Source of the DNA: Escherichia coli
Lineage (GTDB): Bacteria; Pseudomonadota; Gammaproteobacteria; Enterobacterales; Enterobacteriaceae
NCBI RefSeq assembly: GCF_001677475.2
Contig: NZ_CP015229.1
Strand: one strand, 5' to 3'
DNA: 64,000 bases
Shown here one piece after another: positions 14,008 through 64,000 of this stretch (position 1 is the first letter of the stretch; each line of letters begins with the position of its first letter). Position numbers and translations under genes: made by a program. The notes beneath the pieces were generated by a model, which saw only the letters and a list, made by a program, of their open reading frames with translations, was not told the origin of the DNA and did not search any database.

Positions 14008-15057
14008 TTAAAAACTGTTCCTGCGCTGCCAGAGCAGTAGCAAAAAGAATGGTCCACCAATCAATGAAATAATGATTCCGGCAGGCAGTTGCAAAGGCAA
14101 AAAAGCCAAACGACCAATGCTATCCGCCAGGATGACTAACAACGCCCCCGATACGGCGCTCCCCAGCAGTAATGTCGTCTGCCCGCCACGTAGAATAAAA
14201 CGTGATATATGGGGTGCTATCAATCCGACAAAACCGATGTTACCAACACACGAAACGCAGACGGCTGTCAGGATTATTGGTGCGGCGACACGTAACAACG
14301 CCAGACGAGAACTATTCACCCCTAACCCGGTTGCAACCTGATGACCAAGCAGAGCGATATCCGCCGTCCTGGCGGTGAACAGCAATAAAAGAGCGGCTGG
14401 CAACATCCAACAGGCTGAAATACCGACTAACATCCAGTTAGCTGCATGCAGGCTTCCCGATAACCACATCAATGCAGTTTGTACATCTCGAACATCTGCA
14501 GTGGTCATAAATACACCGATACCGGCGGCGAAAAACCAGGAAACACCAATACCAATCAGAACAAATCGCGGGCGGGAAATATCGCGTGCACAAAAAATCA
14601 CGATTAAAGCCACCAACAAGCCACCAGCAAGACCAGCCACTGGACGCCAGAACATTCCCAGCATTGGAAACTGGAAGATCAGCCACAGCACCGCCACGCT
14701 ACATCCTTCTTTGACGCCGATTAAACCAGGATCGGCAAGGCCGTTACGCGCAATGGATTGCATCGCGGCCCCCGCCATACCTAACATGGCTCCGCATAGC
14801 AATGCCATGATGACTCTCGGCAAGCGAATATCCTGCACAATATAACGTGCGTCTGTGCTTACGTTTTCTGGAGCAAACAACGCTCGTCCTACTTCCGATG
14901 CCGGGACAGAAAAAGAACCATGCATCAGACCGAATATCAGTATTCCAACCGCAAACAGAAACAGCCCACCAAGCAACACCAGATTTTTAGGGCGTACCAG
15001 TGTCGAAAACTTACCAACACGTAGTGGACGTAGCCCGACGTTCATTATCCGACTCAT
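14008..15057 (-). CDS. fitD: Iron-siderophore ABC permease (FecCD family)
   Basis: 349 aa, polytopic membrane protein. ATGA overlap with the upstream permease gene. Confidence 0.9.
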   Translation of the reverse strand: MSRIMNVGLRPLRVGKFSTLVRPKNLVLLGGLFLFAVGILIFGLMHGSFSVPASEVGRALFAPENVSTDARYIVQDIRLPRVIMALLCGAMLGMAGAAMQSIARNGLADPGLIGVKEGCSVAVLWLIFQFPMLGMFWRPVAGLAGGLLVALIVIFCARDISRPRFVLIGIGVSWFFAAGIGVFMTTADVRDVQTALMWLSGSLHAANWMLVGISACWMLPAALLLLFTARTADIALLGHQVATGLGVNSSRLALLRVAAPIILTAVCVSCVGNIGFVGLIAPHISRFILRGGQTTLLLGSAVSGALLVILADSIGRLAFLPLQLPAGIIISLIGGPFFLLLLWQRRNSF

Positions 15058-54475: not shown

Positions 54476-54551
54476 GGCCCCTTAGCTCAGTGGTTAGAGC
54501 AGGCGACTCATAATCGCTTGGTCGCTGGTTCAAGTCCAGCAGGGGCCACCA
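54476..54551 (+). tRNA. ileX: tRNA-Ile2 (anticodon CAU, lysidine-modified)
   Basis: 76 nt, ggcccct...aggggcc acceptor stem, anticodon loop ctCATaa, T-arm ggttcaagtcc, encoded CCA. The position after mug matches ileX. Confidence 0.92.
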
Positions 54552-55652: not shown

Positions 55653-56055
55653 TTACTTGTCTTTATTCGGCTGCAACTTATCCGGCACATTTCCGGTAGT
55701 TTCCATCAGGTAATCAGCCAGTATCTGTGGGAGGTTGTCGGCAACTCTGGCACTGGCATTACAGGCTTTAACCACTTCCCTTTTAAGCCCATCCAGCATA
55801 GCGGGGGTAATGTGTGGGAAGCTCCTTTGCATAGTAAGCGGGAGGCTGTCCATGATTGATGAAATCTGACTCGCCAGTTTTGAAAGCGCGTACATGCAAA
55901 ACTCTGTATCAATCACGTCACCGCGATCGCGCTCGTTTTTAAGTTCCTGCGCCTCCGCCTGTGCTGTCAGTAATCTGATCCTGACTCGTAAGTATGAGAC
56001 GACAATAACTCAGTCCGCCTGGCGCCGATTATTCTGGCCGGTTTTGTAACCTGAG
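55653..56055 (-). pseudogene. Nu1-type terminase small subunit, C-terminal part (separated from its N-terminal part by the IS; extra frameshift near 55983)
   Basis: Minus-strand translation gives ...RIRLLTAQAEAQELKNERDRGDVIDTEFCMYALSKLASQISSIMDSLPLTMQRSFPHITPAMLDGLKREVVKACNASA.... This aligns by hand with lambda Nu1 ...HRLTRAQADAQELKNARDSAEVVETAFCTFVLSRIAGEIASILDGLPLSVQRRFPELENRHVDFLKRDIIKAMNKAA (recalled from memory). Confidence 0.8.
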
Positions 56056-56085
56056 TGTCATTTACATGATCCAACAGGAAATGGC

Positions 56086-57514
56086 GTGACGCTCAATACT
56101 TCTCAGGTCAGTTACTATATGACTCAGCGTAAGAAAGGTATAACTCAGCATATCTCGGCCATGAAGGCTGGTATCTCAGTCCGTTCTGGTCGTCGGATCG
56201 AAAAAGGAGAGTGGGCAAAAAACAGTGTTCGGCACTGGCGCACACGCAAAGATCCTCTGGAAGCTGTGTGGGACAGCATGCTTGTTCCTCTGTTGAAAGA
56301 GAGGCCGGCTCTGACACCAACAACTCTACTGGAGATGCTACAGGATAAATATCCCGGCCAGTACCCCAACAGCCTTCGAAGAACAATGCAACGGCGGGTT
56401 CGCGAATGGAAACTACAGTATGGTACAGAGCAGGAGGTCATGTTCCGCCAGCAACATCAGCCCGGCCTGCGAGGCCTGTCGGACTTTACTGAACTGAAAG
56501 GTGTAGTTGTCACCATCGCCGGTAAGTTGTTGGCGCATAAGTTGTATCACTTCCGTCTGGAATGGAGCCACTGGAGCTGGATGCGGGTTGTTCTGGGTGG
56601 TGAGAGCTTCTCTGCTCTGGCTGAAGGCCTGCAGGAAGCCCTCGGACAACTGGGCGGAGTGCCGGTAGAACATAAAACGGACAGCCTGAGGGCAGCATGG
56701 AAACAACAGGGCGAAGATGGACGCCGCGAGCTGACTGAGCGTTATGCTACTCTCTGTCAGCACTACGGAATGCAGGGCGTACACAATAATGCCGGTCGGG
56801 GCCACGAAAATGGCTCGGTTGAAAGTGCCCACGGACATCTGAAAAGGCGTATCTGTCAGGCGCTGATACTGCGGGGCAGTAACGACTTCAGCACCATAGA
56901 AGAATATCAGGCCTTCATCACTCAGCAGGTTATGCGGCACAACCGTAACAATCAGGATCTGGTCAAGGAAGAACGTCTTCATCTGAAACCGCTGCCGCTT
57001 CGTCGCAGTGCTGACTATGATGAGCTGACTGTGAGGGTTAGTCGCAGCAGTACCATCAATGTGAAGCACGTCGTCTACAGCGTACCTTCCCGGCTTGTAG
57101 GTCAACTGTTACGGGTCAGGTTATGGGACGATCGTCTGAGCTGTTACGTTGGCAGCAGCGAGGTCATGAGCTGCCCTCGCGTCAGACCAGAAAAAGGGAA
57201 GACGCGGGCCCGTCGTATCGACTTCCGACATGTGATCGACAGTCTGGCAAAAAAGCCCGGTGCGTTCTGCCATGCAACGCTGAGAAATGACATCCTGCCG
57301 GACGATGAATGGCGGAGGCTGTGGCGTCGCTTATGTAATCATCTGGAGCCCGATATGGCAGGAAGGCTGATGGTACATGCCGGGAAACGTGGATCTGCAC
57401 CGGCTGATGCGCTTCCTGGGTATAAAAGAAAAGGCGTTGCCGGTAGTCAATGTGATACAGCATAACCTGAGCAGTTATGAGCAACTACTGCGTGGCAAGG
57501 GAGGTTCGCAGTGA
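56086..57514 (+). pseudogene. istA: IS21-family transposase IstA with an apparent frame disruption near the 3' end
   Basis: The track ORF 56086-57465 (459 aa, HTH plus DDE region) ends in ...HAGKRGSAPADALPGYKRKGVAGSQCDTA. The +1 frame from 57371 reads WYMPGNVDLHRLMRFLGIKEKALPVVNVIQHNLSSYEQLLRGKGGSQ*, and its TGA overlaps the istB GTG (GTGA at 57511-57514). That overlap is the canonical istA/istB junction. Confidence 0.65.
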
Positions 57515-58266
57515 GCAATATCCATCACCTTGAACATAGCCTGCGTAAACTACGCCTGACACGAGTTGGAGCTGAATGGCACGCTCTGGAAAAACGAGCG
57601 CTGGCAGAAGGCTGGACACCATCGCGCTATCTTCTGACGCTATGCAATGAAGAACTCCTGTGGCGCGAGAGTGAAAAACTGCGTCGTTATAAAAAGGAGG
57701 CCCGGTTGCCAGTTGCCAAAACGCTGAGCGAATACGACTTCAGTCAGGTGCCGGAACTGAATGGAGCTCAGTTCCGGCAACTCTGTGAAACGACAGACTG
57801 GGTTGATGCAGGAGAAAACGTTCTGCTGTTCGGAGCCAGCGGGTTGGGGAAAAGCCATCTGGCGGCAGCGATCGTGGATGGCGTAGTAGGTCAGGGCTAC
57901 CGGGCCCGGTTCTACAGCGCAGGAGAGCTGTTGCAGGAACTACGTAAAGCCAGAGCTCAGTTGAAACTGAATGAGCTGCTACTGAAACTGGATCGCTACC
58001 GGGTGATAGTGGTGGATGATCTTGGCTATGTCAAACGCGATAGTGCCGAAACGGGTGTGCTGTTCGAGTTAATAGCGCATCGCTATGAACGTGGGAGCCT
58101 GGTGATAACCAGTAACCATCCGTTCAGCATGTGGGGCAGCATCTTCGTGGATGAGACTATGGCGGTGGCTGCGGCAGACAGGCTGATCCATCACGGATAT
58201 ATGTTCGAACTGAAAGGGGAAAGCTACAGGAAAAAGACAGCGAAGGCAGTAACAAGCGCGACTTGA
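57511..58266 (+). CDS. istB: IS21-family ATP-binding helper IstB
   Basis: 251 aa, Walker A GASGLGKSH, Walker B VIVVDDLG. A GGGAGG Shine-Dalgarno lies upstream of the GTG. Confidence 0.92.
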   Translation: MSNIHHLEHSLRKLRLTRVGAEWHALEKRALAEGWTPSRYLLTLCNEELLWRESEKLRRYKKEARLPVAKTLSEYDFSQVPELNGAQFRQLCETTDWVDAGENVLLFGASGLGKSHLAAAIVDGVVGQGYRARFYSAGELLQELRKARAQLKLNELLLKLDRYRVIVVDDLGYVKRDSAETGVLFELIAHRYERGSLVITSNHPFSMWGSIFVDETMAVAAADRLIHHGYMFELKGESYRKKTAKAVTSAT

Positions 58267-58325
58267 TGTCGCCCTGAAGGGTGCGGCCAGTATAGTTGGC
58301 GCGAGTCGGCAAAACTAGTTGACGT

Positions 58326-58541
58326 CTAATATCGTAAGAGTTCATCATCATCAATCTCGCCTTTGTCGTTTGTAAGCTGGCTAATTGCATTGTTAACCCT
58401 ATTGTCTATCACGCTGGCAACATCATAAAACGCCTCACGGCCTTTACGTTCAACGGGAGTCACTCCCCACTTGTCGAATGCTGTAGCACTTACCCGGCAG
58501 CTTTGCGCCATGGTTTTTTTGTTCATCAGGTGCGATTTCAT
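58326..58541 (-). pseudogene. Nu1-type terminase small subunit, N-terminal winged-HTH part (truncated at the IS junction)
   Basis: (MKSHL)MNKKTMAQSCRVSATAFDKWGVTPVERKGREAFYDVASVIDNRV... compared with lambda Nu1 MEVNKKQLADIFGASIRTIQNWQEQGMPVLRGGGKGNEVLYDSAAVIKWY (recalled). It lies about 150 nt downstream of cosN, as in lambda. The reading frame hits a TAG exactly at the IS end. Confidence 0.75.
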
Positions 58542-58559
58542 CAATATCCCAACTTGGTC

Positions 58560-58718
58560 AAGGTTTCAGGTTGGTGTGTTGGTGTTATCTTTCCCTTTTT
58601 ATTCATGGAGATAGAGCAAACAACAAAACCACCACCACCCCCCTGAAAAAGCTCATAAATAGCGAAAAACCGCGAGGTCGCCGCCCCGTAACGGGTCCAT
58701 ATGCCGGAAAGGACCCGT
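58560..58718 (-). other. Lambda-type cos site: cosQ-like and cosN core (58651-58718) plus a divergent cosB-side region (58560-58650)
   Basis: Minus strand reads ttACGGGTCCTTTCCGGcatatggacccGTTACG GGGCGGCGACCT CGCGGtTTTTCGCTATTTATGAgc.... Capitals match the lambda right end ...ACGGGTCCTTTCCGGTGATCCGACAGGTTACG and the left end GGGCGGCGACCTCGCGGGTTTTCGCTATTTATGAAAA as I recall them. The 12-nt cohesive-end sequence lies at 58675-58686. Confidence 0.85.
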
Positions 58719-58742
58719 AAAAAAAGCCGGATTTCTCCGGCC
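58719..58742 (-). terminator. Intrinsic terminator ending the capsid operon, immediately upstream of cos
   Basis: Minus strand reads gccgga-gaaa-tccggc followed by ttttttt. A near-identical hairpin recurs at 61002-61017. Confidence 0.85.
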
Positions 58743-58747
58743 TTGTC

Positions 58748-59161
58748 TCAGATGGTTTTCAGTATGCGATCGATGTCGCCATCATCGCCCGGGTTTCTGC
58801 CAGCGTATGCCATACCAGCTGATACGGCTTTCGGGCTGTGCATGTCCATAAAGTTTTCAAAGGCTGCGGTAAGCTCTGGTGCAACCTTCTGGCGTTCCTG
58901 CTCTATGGTCATGCTAAGGATGCTTTTAGCCGTACCAACATCGATACAAGGCACGTTTGCCATTGCACGTAACAGCGGCTGATAGTCGCCAGATTCATCA
59001 AGCGCCATAATCGCATCAGAGCGCGGCTTGTCCTTCTCTTCCAGGCTGTTAAGTTGATATACGGCCTCGTAGGTTGATAAACCTCTGTCAGCCATTGCCC
59101 GCGCTTCGGCCTTAAATTTACTCGCCAGCGGTAGCGTCATGATGCTTTCATTCGTTGCCAT
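58748..59161 (-). CDS. Hypothetical 137-aa protein, last gene of the capsid block
   Basis: The ORF has a GAGGGA Shine-Dalgarno 12 nt after the gpD-like stop. I recognise no family. It is acidic with helical character. Confidence 0.6.
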   Translation of the reverse strand: MATNESIMTLPLASKFKAEARAMADRGLSTYEAVYQLNSLEEKDKPRSDAIMALDESGDYQPLLRAMANVPCIDVGTAKSILSMTIEQERQKVAPELTAAFENFMDMHSPKAVSAGMAYAGRNPGDDGDIDRILKTI

Positions 59162-59173
59162 CGTTCCCTCTGC

Positions 59174-59509
59174 TTATCGGGCCAGTGGCTGAACGGATAC
59201 GCCAGAACCCGCAAAGGCGGCGCATTTTTTCGCATCGGTGTCGACGCTCTCAGGCCAGTTAACGGCGGCGATATTAAATATCCCCGTCTTATAGCACTGT
59301 GCTGATTTCTGCGTCGACGTGTCAACGGGGTACGAGGTCAGATAAACAGCCTTGCCAGATTCCTGACCATCCCACGGCTTAAACTCGCCATTTTCCGCCA
59401 GCATCAGCGGGGTAAATTCCTGAATAACTCCAGCATCAGCGGCAAAATGTACCAGCGTCGTGGATACCTGCTGACTGCCTGCAAATAACTCAATGTATGG
59501 AGTGTTCAT
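59174..59509 (-). CDS. Head decoration protein, lambda gpD-like
   Basis: 111 aa. Shared motifs with lambda gpD (recalled): TPLML, WDG, YK(S/T)G.F, WPE, AFAG..(I/V)S(I/V). GGGGGA Shine-Dalgarno. Confidence 0.8.
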   Translation of the reverse strand: MNTPYIELFAGSQQVSTTLVHFAADAGVIQEFTPLMLAENGEFKPWDGQESGKAVYLTSYPVDTSTQKSAQCYKTGIFNIAAVNWPESVDTDAKKCAAFAGSGVSVQPLAR

Positions 59510-59520
59510 AGAATCCCCCG

Positions 59521-60576
59521 TTAAGCAATTTTGACGGTAACAAATTTGCGAATATCTGCCGGTACCGGCTGCGGTGCGCTGTGCGTCTGCACGTACTCAA
59601 TCGCCGGATCGCCATCCTCAATCCAGTTTTTCGGGTAGTACATGTTTTGCGTTGCGCCAGTTCTTACCGCTTCCGGATCCATAATCGCACCATAGGCCAC
59701 CAGCCCTTTATTGTTAGTGTTGCCCAGGACAAGCAAATCAGGCTCAAGGAAATATTTTTCGGTGCCATCGCTGTCGGTGTATTTGCCGGAATAGACGATA
59801 AGGGCCAGATCACCCAGATAGCCTTTAAAGCTCACCACTTCGCCCAGGTTTTTACAGGCCAGCTCTGCGGCGGATTCTGAACCACGGGAAAGATCGTACA
59901 GTTCACGGAATTTTTTAAAGCTGCGTAACGTGCGCCATACCTCAGCGCCCATAATCATGACGTTGGCGGGGCAACCAGCCTGATCGGTGTATAGTTCGAT
60001 GTCATAGATTGGATCGTGTGTTTCCTTATCTGCCTCAGACCACTTTTTGCCCGATCCCTGCGTAATGATGTTTTTAGTCGGGATTTTCCAGTCGATTTCG
60101 TATCTATTTATTCCTTCGCCCTCAATGATGTTTTTTCCGGTCGTGACCGCATTCACCGCCAGCCATTCTATGCGAGCTTTAATAGCGTTTACCTGGCGGC
60201 GCATGTTGCCAGTAATCAGGCGCATACGGCGATAAGTTGGATCGTTAAGCTGTGCCGGATCTTCTCCAGCCATGCGCATGATGGTTTTTGATGGATCGAT
60301 TTCGTGTTTTGGTTTCATATAGCCAGGGCGGATAGTGCTTGTTTCGTACCCTTTATCGCGCTGAACCTGACTCCCCACCATAGGCGAACAAAAAGCCGAC
60401 ATGGTGACTTCTTCAATATCCAGGGTATCTAACATGATGTCCTGCGTGTTGAAGGTTGCCACGTTCGGGAAAAACAGCGACGTAAACAGCGGACTGAATT
60501 TAAATTCCGAAATATCCCCACGATTCAGGTACGCGAAAAGCTGGTTAGTGTTAAGTGCCGTTGCTTTGCCTGTCAT
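59521..60576 (-). CDS. Major capsid protein, lambda gpE family
   Basis: 351 aa. FKFSPLFTSLFF vs lambda FKFDPLFLRLFF; PGYMKPKHEIDP vs PGYVKPKHEVNP; DPTYRRMRLI vs DPAYRRRRII; YPKNWIEDGDPA vs YPKNWVTTGDPA (lambda recalled from memory). Confidence 0.9.
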   Translation of the reverse strand: MTGKATALNTNQLFAYLNRGDISEFKFSPLFTSLFFPNVATFNTQDIMLDTLDIEEVTMSAFCSPMVGSQVQRDKGYETSTIRPGYMKPKHEIDPSKTIMRMAGEDPAQLNDPTYRRMRLITGNMRRQVNAIKARIEWLAVNAVTTGKNIIEGEGINRYEIDWKIPTKNIITQGSGKKWSEADKETHDPIYDIELYTDQAGCPANVMIMGAEVWRTLRSFKKFRELYDLSRGSESAAELACKNLGEVVSFKGYLGDLALIVYSGKYTDSDGTEKYFLEPDLLVLGNTNNKGLVAYGAIMDPEAVRTGATQNMYYPKNWIEDGDPAIEYVQTHSAPQPVPADIRKFVTVKIA

Positions 60577-60782
60577 TATTCACCCCCATGAGTCTGATTC
60601 ATGCCCAGCGCCGCGCGTAAATAGGCGCGTACCTGCCAGCCTGTTGACGGCTCAACCATCGCCAGCGGCTCAAGTCCTGCCGCAATGCCTGCTTTTACGT
60701 TCTGCTGGTGGCGTTCCTTGAGCGCCTCCACGATGTCTGGGCTTATGTAAACTGTCACCCCGCCTTTTTTCTCTTCTGCCAT
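60576..60782 (-). CDS. Hypothetical 68-aa protein, first gene of the capsid block
   Basis: MAEEKKGGVTVYISPDIVEALKERHQQNVK... from the ATG at 60782 with a GAGGAA Shine-Dalgarno. Its stop overlaps the capsid ATG (TAATG). The track ORF starts 11 codons earlier. Confidence 0.55.
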   Translation of the reverse strand: MAEEKKGGVTVYISPDIVEALKERHQQNVKAGIAAGLEPLAMVEPSTGWQVRAYLRAALGMNQTHGGE

Positions 60783-60810
60783 AGTCGGAAATTCCTCTTT
60801 GACGTTAAAA

Positions 60811-60846
60811 ATCACAACTGGATGTTCATCCAGTTGTGATTATAAT
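60811..60846 (-). promoter_or_regulatory. 30-bp perfect palindrome (operator candidate) abutting a symmetric GATTATAATC -10 element
   Basis: atcacaactggatg-tt-catccagttgtgat (60811-60840), with TATAAT readable on both strands at 60839-60846. It lies about 30-60 nt upstream of the first capsid-block gene. Confidence 0.6.
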
Positions 60847-60950
60847 CATGATTTCATTTTACGCAATAATGTTGAGTTGTGTTGCAAATTGTGAAATGAT
60901 TTCCGGCAACAGTAGTCACCATACTGTTAGATAAAAGCCTCATATGCAAA

Positions 60951-60988
60951 AGCCCGATAAGACCCTCTGACCTTATCGGGCTTTTTTT
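60951..60988 (+). terminator. Strong hairpin plus T7, oriented for the plus strand
   Basis: agcccgataag-accctctgac-cttatcgggct followed by ttttttt. No annotated plus-strand gene lies upstream. Confidence 0.6.
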
Positions 60989-60995
60989 GGGGCAT

Positions 60996-61017
60996 AAAAA
61001 AGCCGGACTTCTCCGGC
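60996..61017 (-). terminator. Intrinsic terminator after ssb
   Basis: Minus strand reads gccgga-gaag-tccggc followed by tttttt. Confidence 0.8.
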
Positions 61018-61033
61018 TTCTGTTACTCGTTGC

Positions 61034-61456
61034 TTAAAACGGTATGTTATCCCCGTACGGATCATCGTTACCCGCCTGTTGTTTTGCCCTGTTCAGTGCG
61101 TCAGTAGCCTGCCCTTGCTGGCCTTTTTTGCCGCCCGGTCGCGCCGTTCTCGCACTGATTACGCTGTCTGCGATAACCTGCCAGCCCTGCCGCGTTTCGC
61201 CGTTCTGGCCTGTCCACTGGCTTACCTGCATGTTACCCGCCACGCTCACCAGTTCGCCTTTGTGGTGTTTTGCCAGTGCGTCGGCCTGTCTGCCAAACGC
61301 CAGGACGGATAACCACATCGTCGCCGTTCCGTCATCTGCCTGGCTGCACGGAAGGGGGACCGCCATACTAGCCATCGTCATTTGTGTACCCTTGCTGGTG
61401 GTCTTTAACTGCGGGTCAGCCACCAGCCGCCCGTAAGCCGCTATCTGTGCTGTCAT
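61034..61456 (-). CDS. ssb: Single-stranded DNA-binding protein
   Basis: 140 aa. OB-fold N-terminus, G/Q-rich linker and an acidic C-terminal tip DDPYGDNIPF (compare the E. coli SSB tip DDDIPF). Confidence 0.88.
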   Translation of the reverse strand: MTAQIAAYGRLVADPQLKTTSKGTQMTMASMAVPLPCSQADDGTATMWLSVLAFGRQADALAKHHKGELVSVAGNMQVSQWTGQNGETRQGWQVIADSVISARTARPGGKKGQQGQATDALNRAKQQAGNDDPYGDNIPF

Positions 61457-61698
61457 GCTGTCTGCTCTCCGGTTTTAACGTTGATGGTTGTCACCTGTTC
61501 CGCTTCGGCAATCTCCCGTTCTGTCAGCGTGGCAAAGTTTGCAGCTGCCGTTGTCATGAATGCGCTAATCAGTTCGGGATGTGCTTTCGCATATCCTTCC
61601 CCGGCGTTGCGGTCGATGATTTTTATCGACACCCTTAACCAGTGTTCCGTCAAATCAAGGGCGTGCGATTGTGATTTTTTTGTGTGCTTCGCTGTCAT
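61453..61698 (-). CDS. Hypothetical 81-aa protein between ori and ssb
   Basis: The ORF overlaps the ssb start by 4 nt. I recognise no family. Confidence 0.5.
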   Translation of the reverse strand: MTAKHTKKSQSHALDLTEHWLRVSIKIIDRNAGEGYAKAHPELISAFMTTAAANFATLTEREIAEAEQVTTINVKTGEQTA

Positions 61699-61743
61699 AG
61701 GCTTTATCTCACAGCAGTAAATTAAAATTTTTGCGTTTTAACC

Positions 61744-61972
61744 CTTCACCTGTTCACCTTTTGATATTTTCCATTTAAATTCATACTGTTAAGGGGTGAA
61801 CAGTTTCACAAAAACTATTCACCAACTGTTCACCACTGTTCACCCTTGAAGCTCAATAAACAACCAAAAAGGTGAACAGTGAATAGTTTGGTGAATAGTT
61901 CATAAATAACTGTTCACCCTATAATATACTGATATAAAAGATATTTATGACAGGGTGAACAGTGGTGAACAG
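61744..61972. repeat. Iteron field / candidate replication origin
   Basis: GGTGAACAG or its complement CTGTTCACC occurs at 61750, 61795, 61826, 61836, 61871, 61910, 61954 and 61964. The variant GGTGAATAG/CTATTCACC occurs at 61815, 61878 and 61890. AT-rich spacers lie at 61759-61790 and 61919-61950. The field sits directly 3' of the primase-helicase gene. Confidence 0.8.
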
Positions 61973-61985
61973 TTATTCCATAAGT

Positions 61986-63803
61986 TTAATTTTTGCTATC
62001 GTCATTAGTGACTGATACACATGATGGCATCCAGTCTTCTGATTCCTCCGTCAGTGTCACGTTTGAACGTAAACCGTGCTTCGTTTTCCGTTTTATATAC
62101 TCCCTGCCATATTCCGCCATTGCCCCAGGCATATCTTTACCGAAGCGCGTCAGTGTTACAGGTTTACCAAACCCATGAGCCCTCATATAAGCCAGATAGG
62201 CATGATAGAGATACCTGCGCGGGCTGAATGGCACAATTTCAGCATTACCCACTAACAGGCCATCACACATTACCGACGCCATGAGATAGCCGCAGAAGTC
62301 CACCAGCGAATCCCCCTCTCGCTTTATCGCCAGTGCTTCTTCAGATTTCTGCTGCTCATATAACAGGCGTCTGGCTTCGTCCTGGTCAGCAAACCTTGTA
62401 AGCAGATGGCGAATCACTACCGCCAGCTCACCTTCTATTTTTTCCGCCAGCATCGGATCGCGTTCGTTCTCCGGTACAACTTCCGAAAAATTGAATATCA
62501 CCCGACGACGTGAGATCCCCCCGCTGCGGTCACTGAATGACATGGCGTTATTGTTAACCGCCAGCACTACTGCCGGAATACGCGTTGAGTAGGGGGCTTT
62601 GTGTTTCGGGTCAATTGCCACCTTGTCACCGCCTGTAATGGCCTTAATTCCTGCCCCATCACCAGCGTAGCGGGTCATATCCGGCATGATAATCAGCGAA
62701 AAGCCAACCACTAACGCGCGTTCCCTTGCATCTTCCAGCGCCTTCATGCTTGCCGATACTGTGTTGGCCTTACCCGCCAGCATGGTGCAAATCTCCGCCA
62801 TCACGCTTTTACCACTTCCCCCTGGACCTGTTACCTCAATGAATAACTGCCAGTCGTACCGGTTCGCCAGCACCATGAATAATGCAGCCAGTACGCGATC
62901 CGCCTTGCGGTCATTCTCAGCCACCGAACGGCGTAACCACTTCCAGAAATTCGGCGCATGTGTTGCCAGCGTTTCCCCCTCTGCTGGTGGGCTGAAAGGT
63001 AATTCACTGGCAATTAACAACCAGTCGTTTTTGTTATGCTCCCGAAAATTACCTGTTCTGGTATCAAATACCCCGTTACTGAATCCAATCAGGTTACGGG
63101 CTGTATTCCCCATTACAGGCAAACTTAACTTCATGGTATCGACCGCCGATTTAATGGCGTTCTGCGAATAGCTGATCTCCGCATCAATGAAAATCTGCGC
63201 CATAGCACGCTGTAACTCTTTATCCTGAACCGGCTCCCATACAACGCCGTTGTAATGGTGAACAGTGTCAGAGTCAGCATGAATCGCCAGTTCACCGCCA
63301 TAATGTGCCAGGAGAACTTCGCCGCGTTGACTTGCTCCCATCTGGTTAAGCGCCAGTGATGAAGCGTTATCGTCTTTTACCCGCTCTTTTTTCTTTACAG
63401 GCAGTTCAACTACCTTTTTCTTTTCCGCCAGCTCTGCCCGTTCACGTTCCAGATATTCGCGCCAGTTCTCCCGTTTCTGGCTGTGCATTCCTTCAGGATA
63501 ATAATCAGCATCCCTGACACCTGCCGCTGCCAGTTTCTGCCCGATGGTATTAACAAGCCCCGGACGCAATAACCCCGCCTGGTAGAGACGCACACGATAG
63601 CGTCCGTCCGGTACGATTTGCAGGTTGTCCAGTTCGGCAAGTTGTTGCTCTCCAAGCCAGACAGGAGGCACGTTATCGCCAGCCAGTCGCCCGTCCTGTT
63701 CCTGCCACTGCTTCGCATGTGCCCACGCATCACTACCCGCAAAAATGATGACTTCCGTCATTTTGTCACGTGGCTGGTGTTTTAAATTTGGCGCTTTTTT
63801 CAT
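61986..63803 (-). CDS. P4/D5-type primase-helicase (N-terminal primase-like region, D5_N, SF3 helicase)
   Basis: About 605 aa from the ATG at 63803 (MKKAPNLKHQ...), Walker A GPGGSGKS, Walker B-like SLIIMPD. The ATGA overlap with the upstream small ORF supports this start. Confidence 0.88.
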   Translation of the reverse strand: MKKAPNLKHQPRDKMTEVIIFAGSDAWAHAKQWQEQDGRLAGDNVPPVWLGEQQLAELDNLQIVPDGRYRVRLYQAGLLRPGLVNTIGQKLAAAGVRDADYYPEGMHSQKRENWREYLERERAELAEKKKVVELPVKKKERVKDDNASSLALNQMGASQRGEVLLAHYGGELAIHADSDTVHHYNGVVWEPVQDKELQRAMAQIFIDAEISYSQNAIKSAVDTMKLSLPVMGNTARNLIGFSNGVFDTRTGNFREHNKNDWLLIASELPFSPPAEGETLATHAPNFWKWLRRSVAENDRKADRVLAALFMVLANRYDWQLFIEVTGPGGSGKSVMAEICTMLAGKANTVSASMKALEDARERALVVGFSLIIMPDMTRYAGDGAGIKAITGGDKVAIDPKHKAPYSTRIPAVVLAVNNNAMSFSDRSGGISRRRVIFNFSEVVPENERDPMLAEKIEGELAVVIRHLLTRFADQDEARRLLYEQQKSEEALAIKREGDSLVDFCGYLMASVMCDGLLVGNAEIVPFSPRRYLYHAYLAYMRAHGFGKPVTLTRFGKDMPGAMAEYGREYIKRKTKHGLRSNVTLTEESEDWMPSCVSVTNDDSKN

Positions 63804-63988
63804 TTCTGCTCTCTCCACGCGGCAATCATGTTTTTCAGTTCCTGTAGTTTTTTATCAACATCCATACATGACACATGGTTATTTCTGGAAGGCGGGATTT
63901 CCCGCCGGAATCTGCAAATAAAGATCTCCACGTTCAGCGAGCTATGAAATGAATAGCCATCACGAATAAAATACACACGGTCAAACAT
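63800..63988 (-). CDS. Hypothetical 62-aa protein translationally coupled to the primase-helicase
   Basis: ORF MFDRVYFIRDGYSFHSSLNVEIFI...KKLQELKNMIAAWREQK. Its stop overlaps the primase ATG. Confidence 0.45.
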   Translation of the reverse strand: MFDRVYFIRDGYSFHSSLNVEIFICRFRREIPPSRNNHVSCMDVDKKLQELKNMIAAWREQK

Positions 63989-64000
63989 TATCGATTTTAC

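Follow-up and report, generated by a model that had tools for sequence, protein, structure and literature searches.

A mirror-symmetric field of P4-type iterons beside a P4-alpha-like helicase gene, the probable replication origin of an EcCICFT073-family island in Escherichia coli

The DNA described here, 64,000 nucleotides of an Escherichia coli chromosome (contig NZ_CP015229.1) referred to throughout as the window, carries part of a probable phage-inducible chromosomal island (PICI). Read leftwards from the right end of the window, the island genes, all on the minus strand, encode a 610-aa helicase, an 81-aa open reading frame (ORF), a single-stranded DNA-binding protein (SSB), a capsid protein, a decoration protein and a Nu1-like small terminase (TerS), and between the helicase gene and the 81-aa ORF lies a field of short repeated sites, or iterons. 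We put the probability that this field is a single, compact replication origin of a PICI of the EcCICFT073 family at roughly 85%. An origin had already been proposed in an earlier note on this DNA, and the proposal is borne out since the iteron core is the type I iteron of satellite phage P4, the helicase ends in a binding domain of the P4 alpha type, the gene order is that of EcCICFT073, whose corresponding field is necessary for replication, and the iteron class co-varies with the binding domain. By analogy with this homologue, the window island may be expected to replicate autonomously after induction.

The repeats stand well apart from the chance background. The consensus GGTGAAYAG matches the window 13 times against 0.53 expected, a number reached by none of 100 shuffles, and ten of the matches, within 61750-61972, are the ten exact sites of a field of 231 bp. 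The earlier note had counted eleven iterons, namely eight copies of GGTGAACAG and three of a one-mismatch variant. The eight are all present (61750-, 61795+, 61826-, 61836-, 61871+, 61910-, 61954+ and 61964+); the variant, GGTGAATAG, occurs exactly only twice (61815- and 61890+), its supposed third copy being AGTGAATAG at 61878-61886, a degenerate iteron with an additional mismatch. Together with a twelfth, likewise degenerate copy, GGTGAAGGG on the minus strand at 61742-61750, this gives a field of 12 sites, ten exact and two degenerate. The three matches outside the field, at 14312 and 14374 in a 349-aa ORF of an unrelated chromosomal gene and at 63257 inside the helicase gene, were taken as chance because about 0.5 are expected in the window. 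The last iteron ends at 61972 and the helicase stop codon occupies 61986-61988, a gap of 13 nt, so the previously given distance of 14 bp was essentially right; the two AT-rich spacers described before are also real, at 78% and 80% A+T against 44-49% in the flanking genes. The field and the adjacent gene comprise the following features.

61742..61972, minus strand: whole iteron field, putative origin; 12 copies of (C)TGTTCACC, six in each of two units mirrored about ~61856
61954..61972, plus strand: outer iteron pair of the unit nearer the helicase gene; two copies of GGTGAACAG, spaced 10 bp
61919..61953, no strand: AT-rich spacer 1, candidate unwinding element; 35 bp, 80% A+T; P4 ori has a 35-bp spacer in the equivalent place
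61871..61918, both strands: inner quartet of the proximal unit; sites at 61910 (-), 61890 (+, T variant), 61878 (+, degenerate) and 61871 (+)
61845..61870, no strand: central spacer with the dyad centre at ~61856; 26 bp, 69% A+T
61795..61844, both strands: inner quartet of the distal unit; sites at 61836 (-), 61826 (-), 61815 (-, T variant) and 61795 (+)
61759..61794, no strand: AT-rich spacer 2, candidate unwinding element; 36 bp, 78% A+T
61742..61758, minus strand: outer pair of the distal unit; an exact site at 61750 and a degenerate one at 61742 (GGTGAAGGG)
61986..63818, minus strand: P4-alpha-like initiator-helicase, 610 aa from a GTG start; assigned by Pfam domains, the 1KA8 match and identity to P4 alpha

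The field is dyad-symmetric about its centre, with an ungapped identity of 48% to its own reverse complement, whereas 2000 shuffled fields gave 27% on average (standard deviation 4%, maximum 40%). Written from the helicase stop codon, with ) and ( for degenerate sites, the layout runs > 10 > 43 < 21 ) 12 ) 7 > up to a central interval of 34, and from there < 10 < 11 ( 21 > 44 < 8 ( to the distal end. P4 ori, reverse-complemented, runs > 10 > 43 < 22 > 11 > 10 >, and each half of the field matches it in the order, orientation and spacing of the sites. Given this match, and since the second six sites mirror the first six, the field can be described as two units of the P4-ori kind in inverted arrangement. 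The iterons themselves point the same way, since the 8-bp core TGTTCACC is exactly the sequence that the P4 record (NC_001609) labels 'ori type 1 repeat', in ori as well as in crr; P4 also uses the TATTCACC variant found in the window. Ziegelin and colleagues are said to have found, in 1993, that P4 alpha binds these type I iterons. The likeness to P4 alpha with its ori and crr that had been claimed for the region thus stands as regards iterons, binding domain and ori layout, and falls as regards the bipartite cis elements, ori plus a distant crr, in whose place stands a single compact origin. No DnaA box (up to one mismatch), IHF consensus site or GATC was found in the field, which hence gives no sign of host-initiator involvement.

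The 610-aa protein (605 aa if it begins at M6, as its RefSeq relatives do) contains D5_N (residues 167-296), the SF3 helicase core (DUF5906; 330-438) and Pox_D5 in Pfam, and its residues 150-600 are 50.7% identical to P4 alpha. The SF3 motifs are intact: the Walker A motif is GPGGSGKS, and a MAFFT alignment with P4 alpha shows no change in the residues of Walker A, Walker B and motif C. Residues 502-598 match the winged-helix structure of the P4 alpha origin-binding domain (1KA8) with E=2.5e-24. The name primase-helicase used for the gene before was overstated, in that residues 1-170 gave nothing at E<=1 in Pfam, neither a Zn-ribbon nor a Toprim domain, while P4 alpha gave both Zn_Ribbon_Prim and Toprim_3. 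The MAFFT alignment hinted at motifs shared with the N-terminus of P4 alpha, and these were left unconfirmed by a profile-profile comparison with alpha N-termini, in which only residues 147-170 aligned. The position of the Toprim catalytic Glu is taken by Ala ('IIFAGSDAW'), and neither a DxD motif after the third strand nor a zinc ribbon was found in the N-terminus. From its sequence, the N-terminal region of ~130 aa looks like a catalytically degenerate remnant of a Toprim-like fold. Because the protein has no recognisable active primase, priming is more likely to be done by host DnaG than by the protein itself.

An experimental parallel is provided by the prototype of the Gram-negative PICIs, EcCICFT073 (Fillol-Salom et al., 2018, ISME J; PMC6092414). 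A plasmid carrying its pri gene and ori was maintained at the restrictive temperature, and plasmids lacking either part (pri-delta-ori and delta-pri-ori) were not (PMC6092414). When the primers in the supplement of that study were mapped, the delta-ori construct was found to end 4 bp past the pri stop codon and the pri-ori construct just inside the ORF that follows the field, so that the 'ori' tested was exactly the field homologous to that of the window. The 288-bp intergenic region after pri in EcCICFT073 holds the same 12-site scaffold with the iteron TGTCTACC, and the window field aligns with it column by column; the two initiators are 49% identical over their full length and only 34% in the binding domain.

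This pairing of a changed iteron with a diverged binding domain recurs across the Enterobacterales. A scan of one genome per species yielded 80 loci encoding relatives of the helicase (60-84% identical), in Escherichia, Klebsiella, Raoultella, Kluyvera, Pectobacterium, Serratia, Yersinia, Erwinia, Xenorhabdus, Photorhabdus and other genera, and in almost all of them the gene is followed directly by an iteron cluster. With the window, CFT073, P4, vB_KppS-Ant and SMS-3-5 added, the 85 origins fall into four iteron classes, TGTTCACC (64/85), TGTCTACC (7/85), TCTCCACC (5/85) and CTGTCCRC (4/85), with five origins unclear. The order, orientation and spacing of the sites are kept across classes, and ten origins representing all four align in register. 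Within each origin, the change extends to all the sites and to a short stretch of the binding domain (L007-L086; L006 12001-12284).

It is the binding domain, rather than the helicase, that the iteron class follows in these sequences. In three loci (L010, L015 and L018) the helicase core is 89-93% identical to that of the window, the binding domain is only 62-65% identical and the iteron is TGTCTACC. In nucleotide sequence, L010 shares 90-94% identity with the window across the core, falling to 59% over the last codons of the binding domain and to 41% across the origin, whereas relatives of the same class hold ~70% identity through the junction of binding domain and origin. The class-specific residues cluster at positions 576-588 of the binding domain, a segment lengthened by a 5-aa insertion in the TGTCTACC and CTGTCCRC classes; the TGTTCACC class is marked by G582 and R584, and S515, D519 and position 548 also differ by class. 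By comparison with the published description of the domain (PMC2777425), residues 576-588 should be the beta-hairpin wing that follows the recognition helix. Since a single-sequence AlphaFold model of the binding domain was unusable (pLDDT 39), this position of the wing is one that we infer. The check proposed earlier, whether the iterons co-vary among homologous islands with the binding region of the helicase, is thus answered in the affirmative over 80 loci, and this covariation indirectly supports specific binding of the iterons by the 610-aa protein.

Taken together, these features suggest how the origin might fire. A helper phage would turn on the island operon, the P4-alpha-like protein would be made, and its C-terminal winged-helix domain would bind the 8-9 bp iterons (C)TGTTCACC. 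These are set out in two inverted units of six, each formed of an outer pair, a spacer of 35-36 bp with ~80% A+T, an inverted site and three phased sites, and cooperative binding to them would concentrate the SF3 helicase domains until hexamers assemble and the AT-rich spacers melt. The mirror symmetry of the field would load two opposed helicases and allow bidirectional unwinding, with host DnaG probably priming and the island SSB coating the unwound DNA. Binding of the protein to the iterons, melting of the spacers and the identity of the priming enzyme are points that we infer, as is the loading of a double hexamer, for which the reason is the dyad symmetry of the field.

Three other roles for the field have to be weighed against that of an origin. 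It could be a crr-like element, a cis enhancer or a copy-number control site acting by handcuffing, which binds the alpha-like protein without being the start site. This is suggested by P4, where the cluster directly 3' of alpha is crr and not ori, and by plasmids, whose iteron arrays commonly double as negative-control sites. However, no second iteron cluster, only isolated single sites, was found in the complete island (L001), the half-field has the layout of P4 ori and not that of the 120-bp unit of crr, and in EcCICFT073 pri and the field alone suffice for plasmid maintenance (PMC6092414), all of which make a crr-like role improbable. Somewhat less probable again is that the sites are operators at which the alpha-like protein or another regulator controls how strongly the ssb, capsid and terS genes further downstream are transcribed. 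The field has co-directional genes on either side and transcription must pass across it, no terminator having been found in 61300-62300, and initiators often autoregulate via their own iterons; yet no sigma-70-like promoter was found in the same interval against 1.9 expected, 12 sites with AT-rich spacers in the layout of P4 ori exceed the needs of an operator, and the sites co-vary with the binding domain of the helicase itself. An operator role could also exist alongside origin function. The least probable role, to which we would give very little weight, is that of a packaging signal (pac or cosB-like) read by the Nu1-like small terminase. The island does encode a TerS of the Nu1 family, and the binding sites of small terminases are often repeated, but the iteron goes with the binding domain of the helicase and not with the terminase, the repeat serves replication in P4, and the origin module sits before three unrelated packaging modules (lambda-like, HK97/P27-type and ClpP-MCP), so that it travels with unrelated terminases.

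Several points weigh against the origin reading itself or temper the evidence for it. P4 shares the iteron and the binding domain, yet depends on two separate clusters, ori and crr, and the replication that was demonstrated with a cognate Pri-Rep protein is that of EcCICFT073 (PMC6092414). The covariation is partly confounded, as the iteron classes partly follow clades, and it supports binding without being independent proof of it because the partners lie 13 nt apart and are inherited together; the placing of the co-varying residues in the wing draws on homology to 1KA8 and on a literature description. The pairwise identity of iteron columns in the TGTTCACC class, 0.90 against 0.62 for spacer columns (p=4e-15; 12 distinct origins), comes from an alignment that was anchored on the iterons and hence favours them. 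Finally, the element as a whole may be unable to complete its cycle, given the insertion sequence in terS and the position of int and alpA beyond the window.

The surroundings of the origin, as far as the window reaches, are compatible with a PICI. The chromosomal genes are plsY, ttdR-ttdT, tsaD, rpsU-dnaG-rpoD and mug, and the island is inserted beside a tRNA gene at 54476-54551, called tRNA-Met (CAT) by ARAGORN and, in the RefSeq record of TUM1886, tRNA-Ile of the ileX type with a modified CAT anticodon. The window shows the part of the island from pri to terS. Positions 58332-64000 are 99.9% identical to the island of TUM1886, which continues with a DUF4222 gene, an Icd-like gene, an HTH regulator and an integrase; int and alpA, which lie beyond 64000, are present there. 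The features downstream of the origin are listed below.

61453..61698, minus strand: 81-aa ORF of unknown function, directly after the origin; conserved in relatives (WP_000125507)
61034..61456, minus strand: island SSB gene (Pfam SSB, E=4e-16), two genes downstream of the origin
59521-60576, minus strand: lambda gpE-like capsid gene, homologue of EcCICFT073 c1499
59174-59509, minus strand: lambda gpD-like decoration gene, homologue of EcCICFT073 c1500
55993-58331: IS21-family element in the Nu1-like terS gene, with istA at 56086-57465 and istB at 57511-58266

The position of the SSB gene is conserved in EcCICFT073 and SMS-3-5, and its product is a probable accessory replication factor. Deletion of c1499/c1500 had no phenotype (PMC6092414). 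The IS21-family element interrupts terS, for which reason the copy of the island in the window is probably defective for packaging; it is absent from terS in the island of TUM1886.

The origin belongs to a very common satellite module of E. coli. Of 5426 complete E. coli genomes, 593 have a field 89-100% identical to that of the window, in up to six copies per genome, and no annotated feature underlies the match in any of the records listed. Some genomes, for example NZ_CP028742.1 (strain A33), carry five to six copies of the origin allele of the window, so that shared iterons are evidently no bar to the co-residence of integrated elements. The module of helicase gene and origin precedes a lambda-like (gpE/gpD) morphogenesis module in the window and in CFT073, the full HK97/P27-type head set of a capsid-forming PICI (cfPICI) in SMS-3-5 (L002) and vB_KppS-Ant (L004), and a ClpP-capsid (ClpP-MCP) fusion in pZ1323HEC0475-3 (L087). 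Three morphogenesis modules behind one and the same replication module agree with the reported gene flow of primase-replicase genes between PICIs and cfPICIs (PMC10085698). Of these records, vB_KppS-Ant is a 16.5-kb 'induced prophage', and pZ1323HEC0475-3 (NZ_CP148328.1), deposited as a non-mobilizable E. coli plasmid, is a circular record of 10,790 bp that holds an entire PICI with int, alpA, icd-like, DUF4222 and pri genes, an origin 97.3% identical to that of the window and the ClpP-capsid fusion. The latter may be an episomal or excised satellite and is consistent with, though not proof of, an extrachromosomal existence.

The field leaves the current picture of PICI replication unchanged, and what it adds is small: the identity of the iteron with that of P4, the mirrored layout of two units, the four co-varying classes and the loss of the primase. 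In a text search of the literature, figures aside, TGTTCACC was found only in unrelated primers and never together with the word 'iteron', and the iteron is absent from the supplements of PMC6092414. Four classes on one scaffold offer a ready-made system for the study of specificity between initiators and origins, and of possible cross-talk between satellites. A wider and decidedly tentative proposal, which we regard as less likely to be right than wrong, is that P4-like satellites, PICIs and cfPICIs share an exchangeable cassette of wing and origin with at least four specificity classes. If so, P4 alpha and the PICI initiator of the window, whose island has the P4 iteron class, could fire or compete for each other's origins in a shared cell, with replication cross-talk or parasitism between satellite families as the outcome. 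On the same proposal, the PICI lineage would have duplicated the P4 ori unit in inverted orientation, the compact palindromic origin would have taken the place of looping between ori and crr, and the primase of the initiator would have been lost.

The field can be set beside four known systems. The SaPIs, which are Gram-positive PICIs, have iterons unlike those of the window and usually separate Pri and Rep proteins. Papillomavirus E1 and SV40 large T antigen are comparable by analogy only, as SF3 helicases fused to an origin-binding domain that use inverted sites beside AT-rich DNA, where two opposed hexamers are loaded; they belong to eukaryotic viruses, and the fold of their binding domains and their sites are unrelated to those of the window. 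P4 is closer. The iteron core TGTTCACC and the TATTCACC variant are identical in both, the two proteins have homologous SF3 helicases and homologous C-terminal origin-binding domains (1KA8), and the half-field repeats the pair, the 35-bp spacer, the one inverted site and the three phased sites. P4, however, has two clusters ~4.7 kb apart, of which crr consists of direct 120-bp repeats, where the island has a single cluster, immediately 3' of the gene, built from two ori-like units in inverted orientation, and P4 alpha has an N-terminal Zn-ribbon and Toprim primase, neither of which is detectable in the window protein. The closest counterpart is EcCICFT073. Both islands have the order icd-like, DUF4222, pri, intergenic field, small ORF, ssb, gpE-like capsid and gpD-like decoration gene, both fields begin ~13-15 nt past the stop codon, and both show the mirror layout of 12 sites with AT-rich spacers; they differ in the iteron (TGTCTACC there, TGTTCACC in the window), in the 5-aa insertion that the EcCICFT073 class has in the presumed wing, and in the Nu1-like terS, which EcCICFT073 lacks and the window island has in an IS-interrupted form. 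The field is thus a further example of a known and experimentally tested type of origin, here equipped with iterons of the P4 type.
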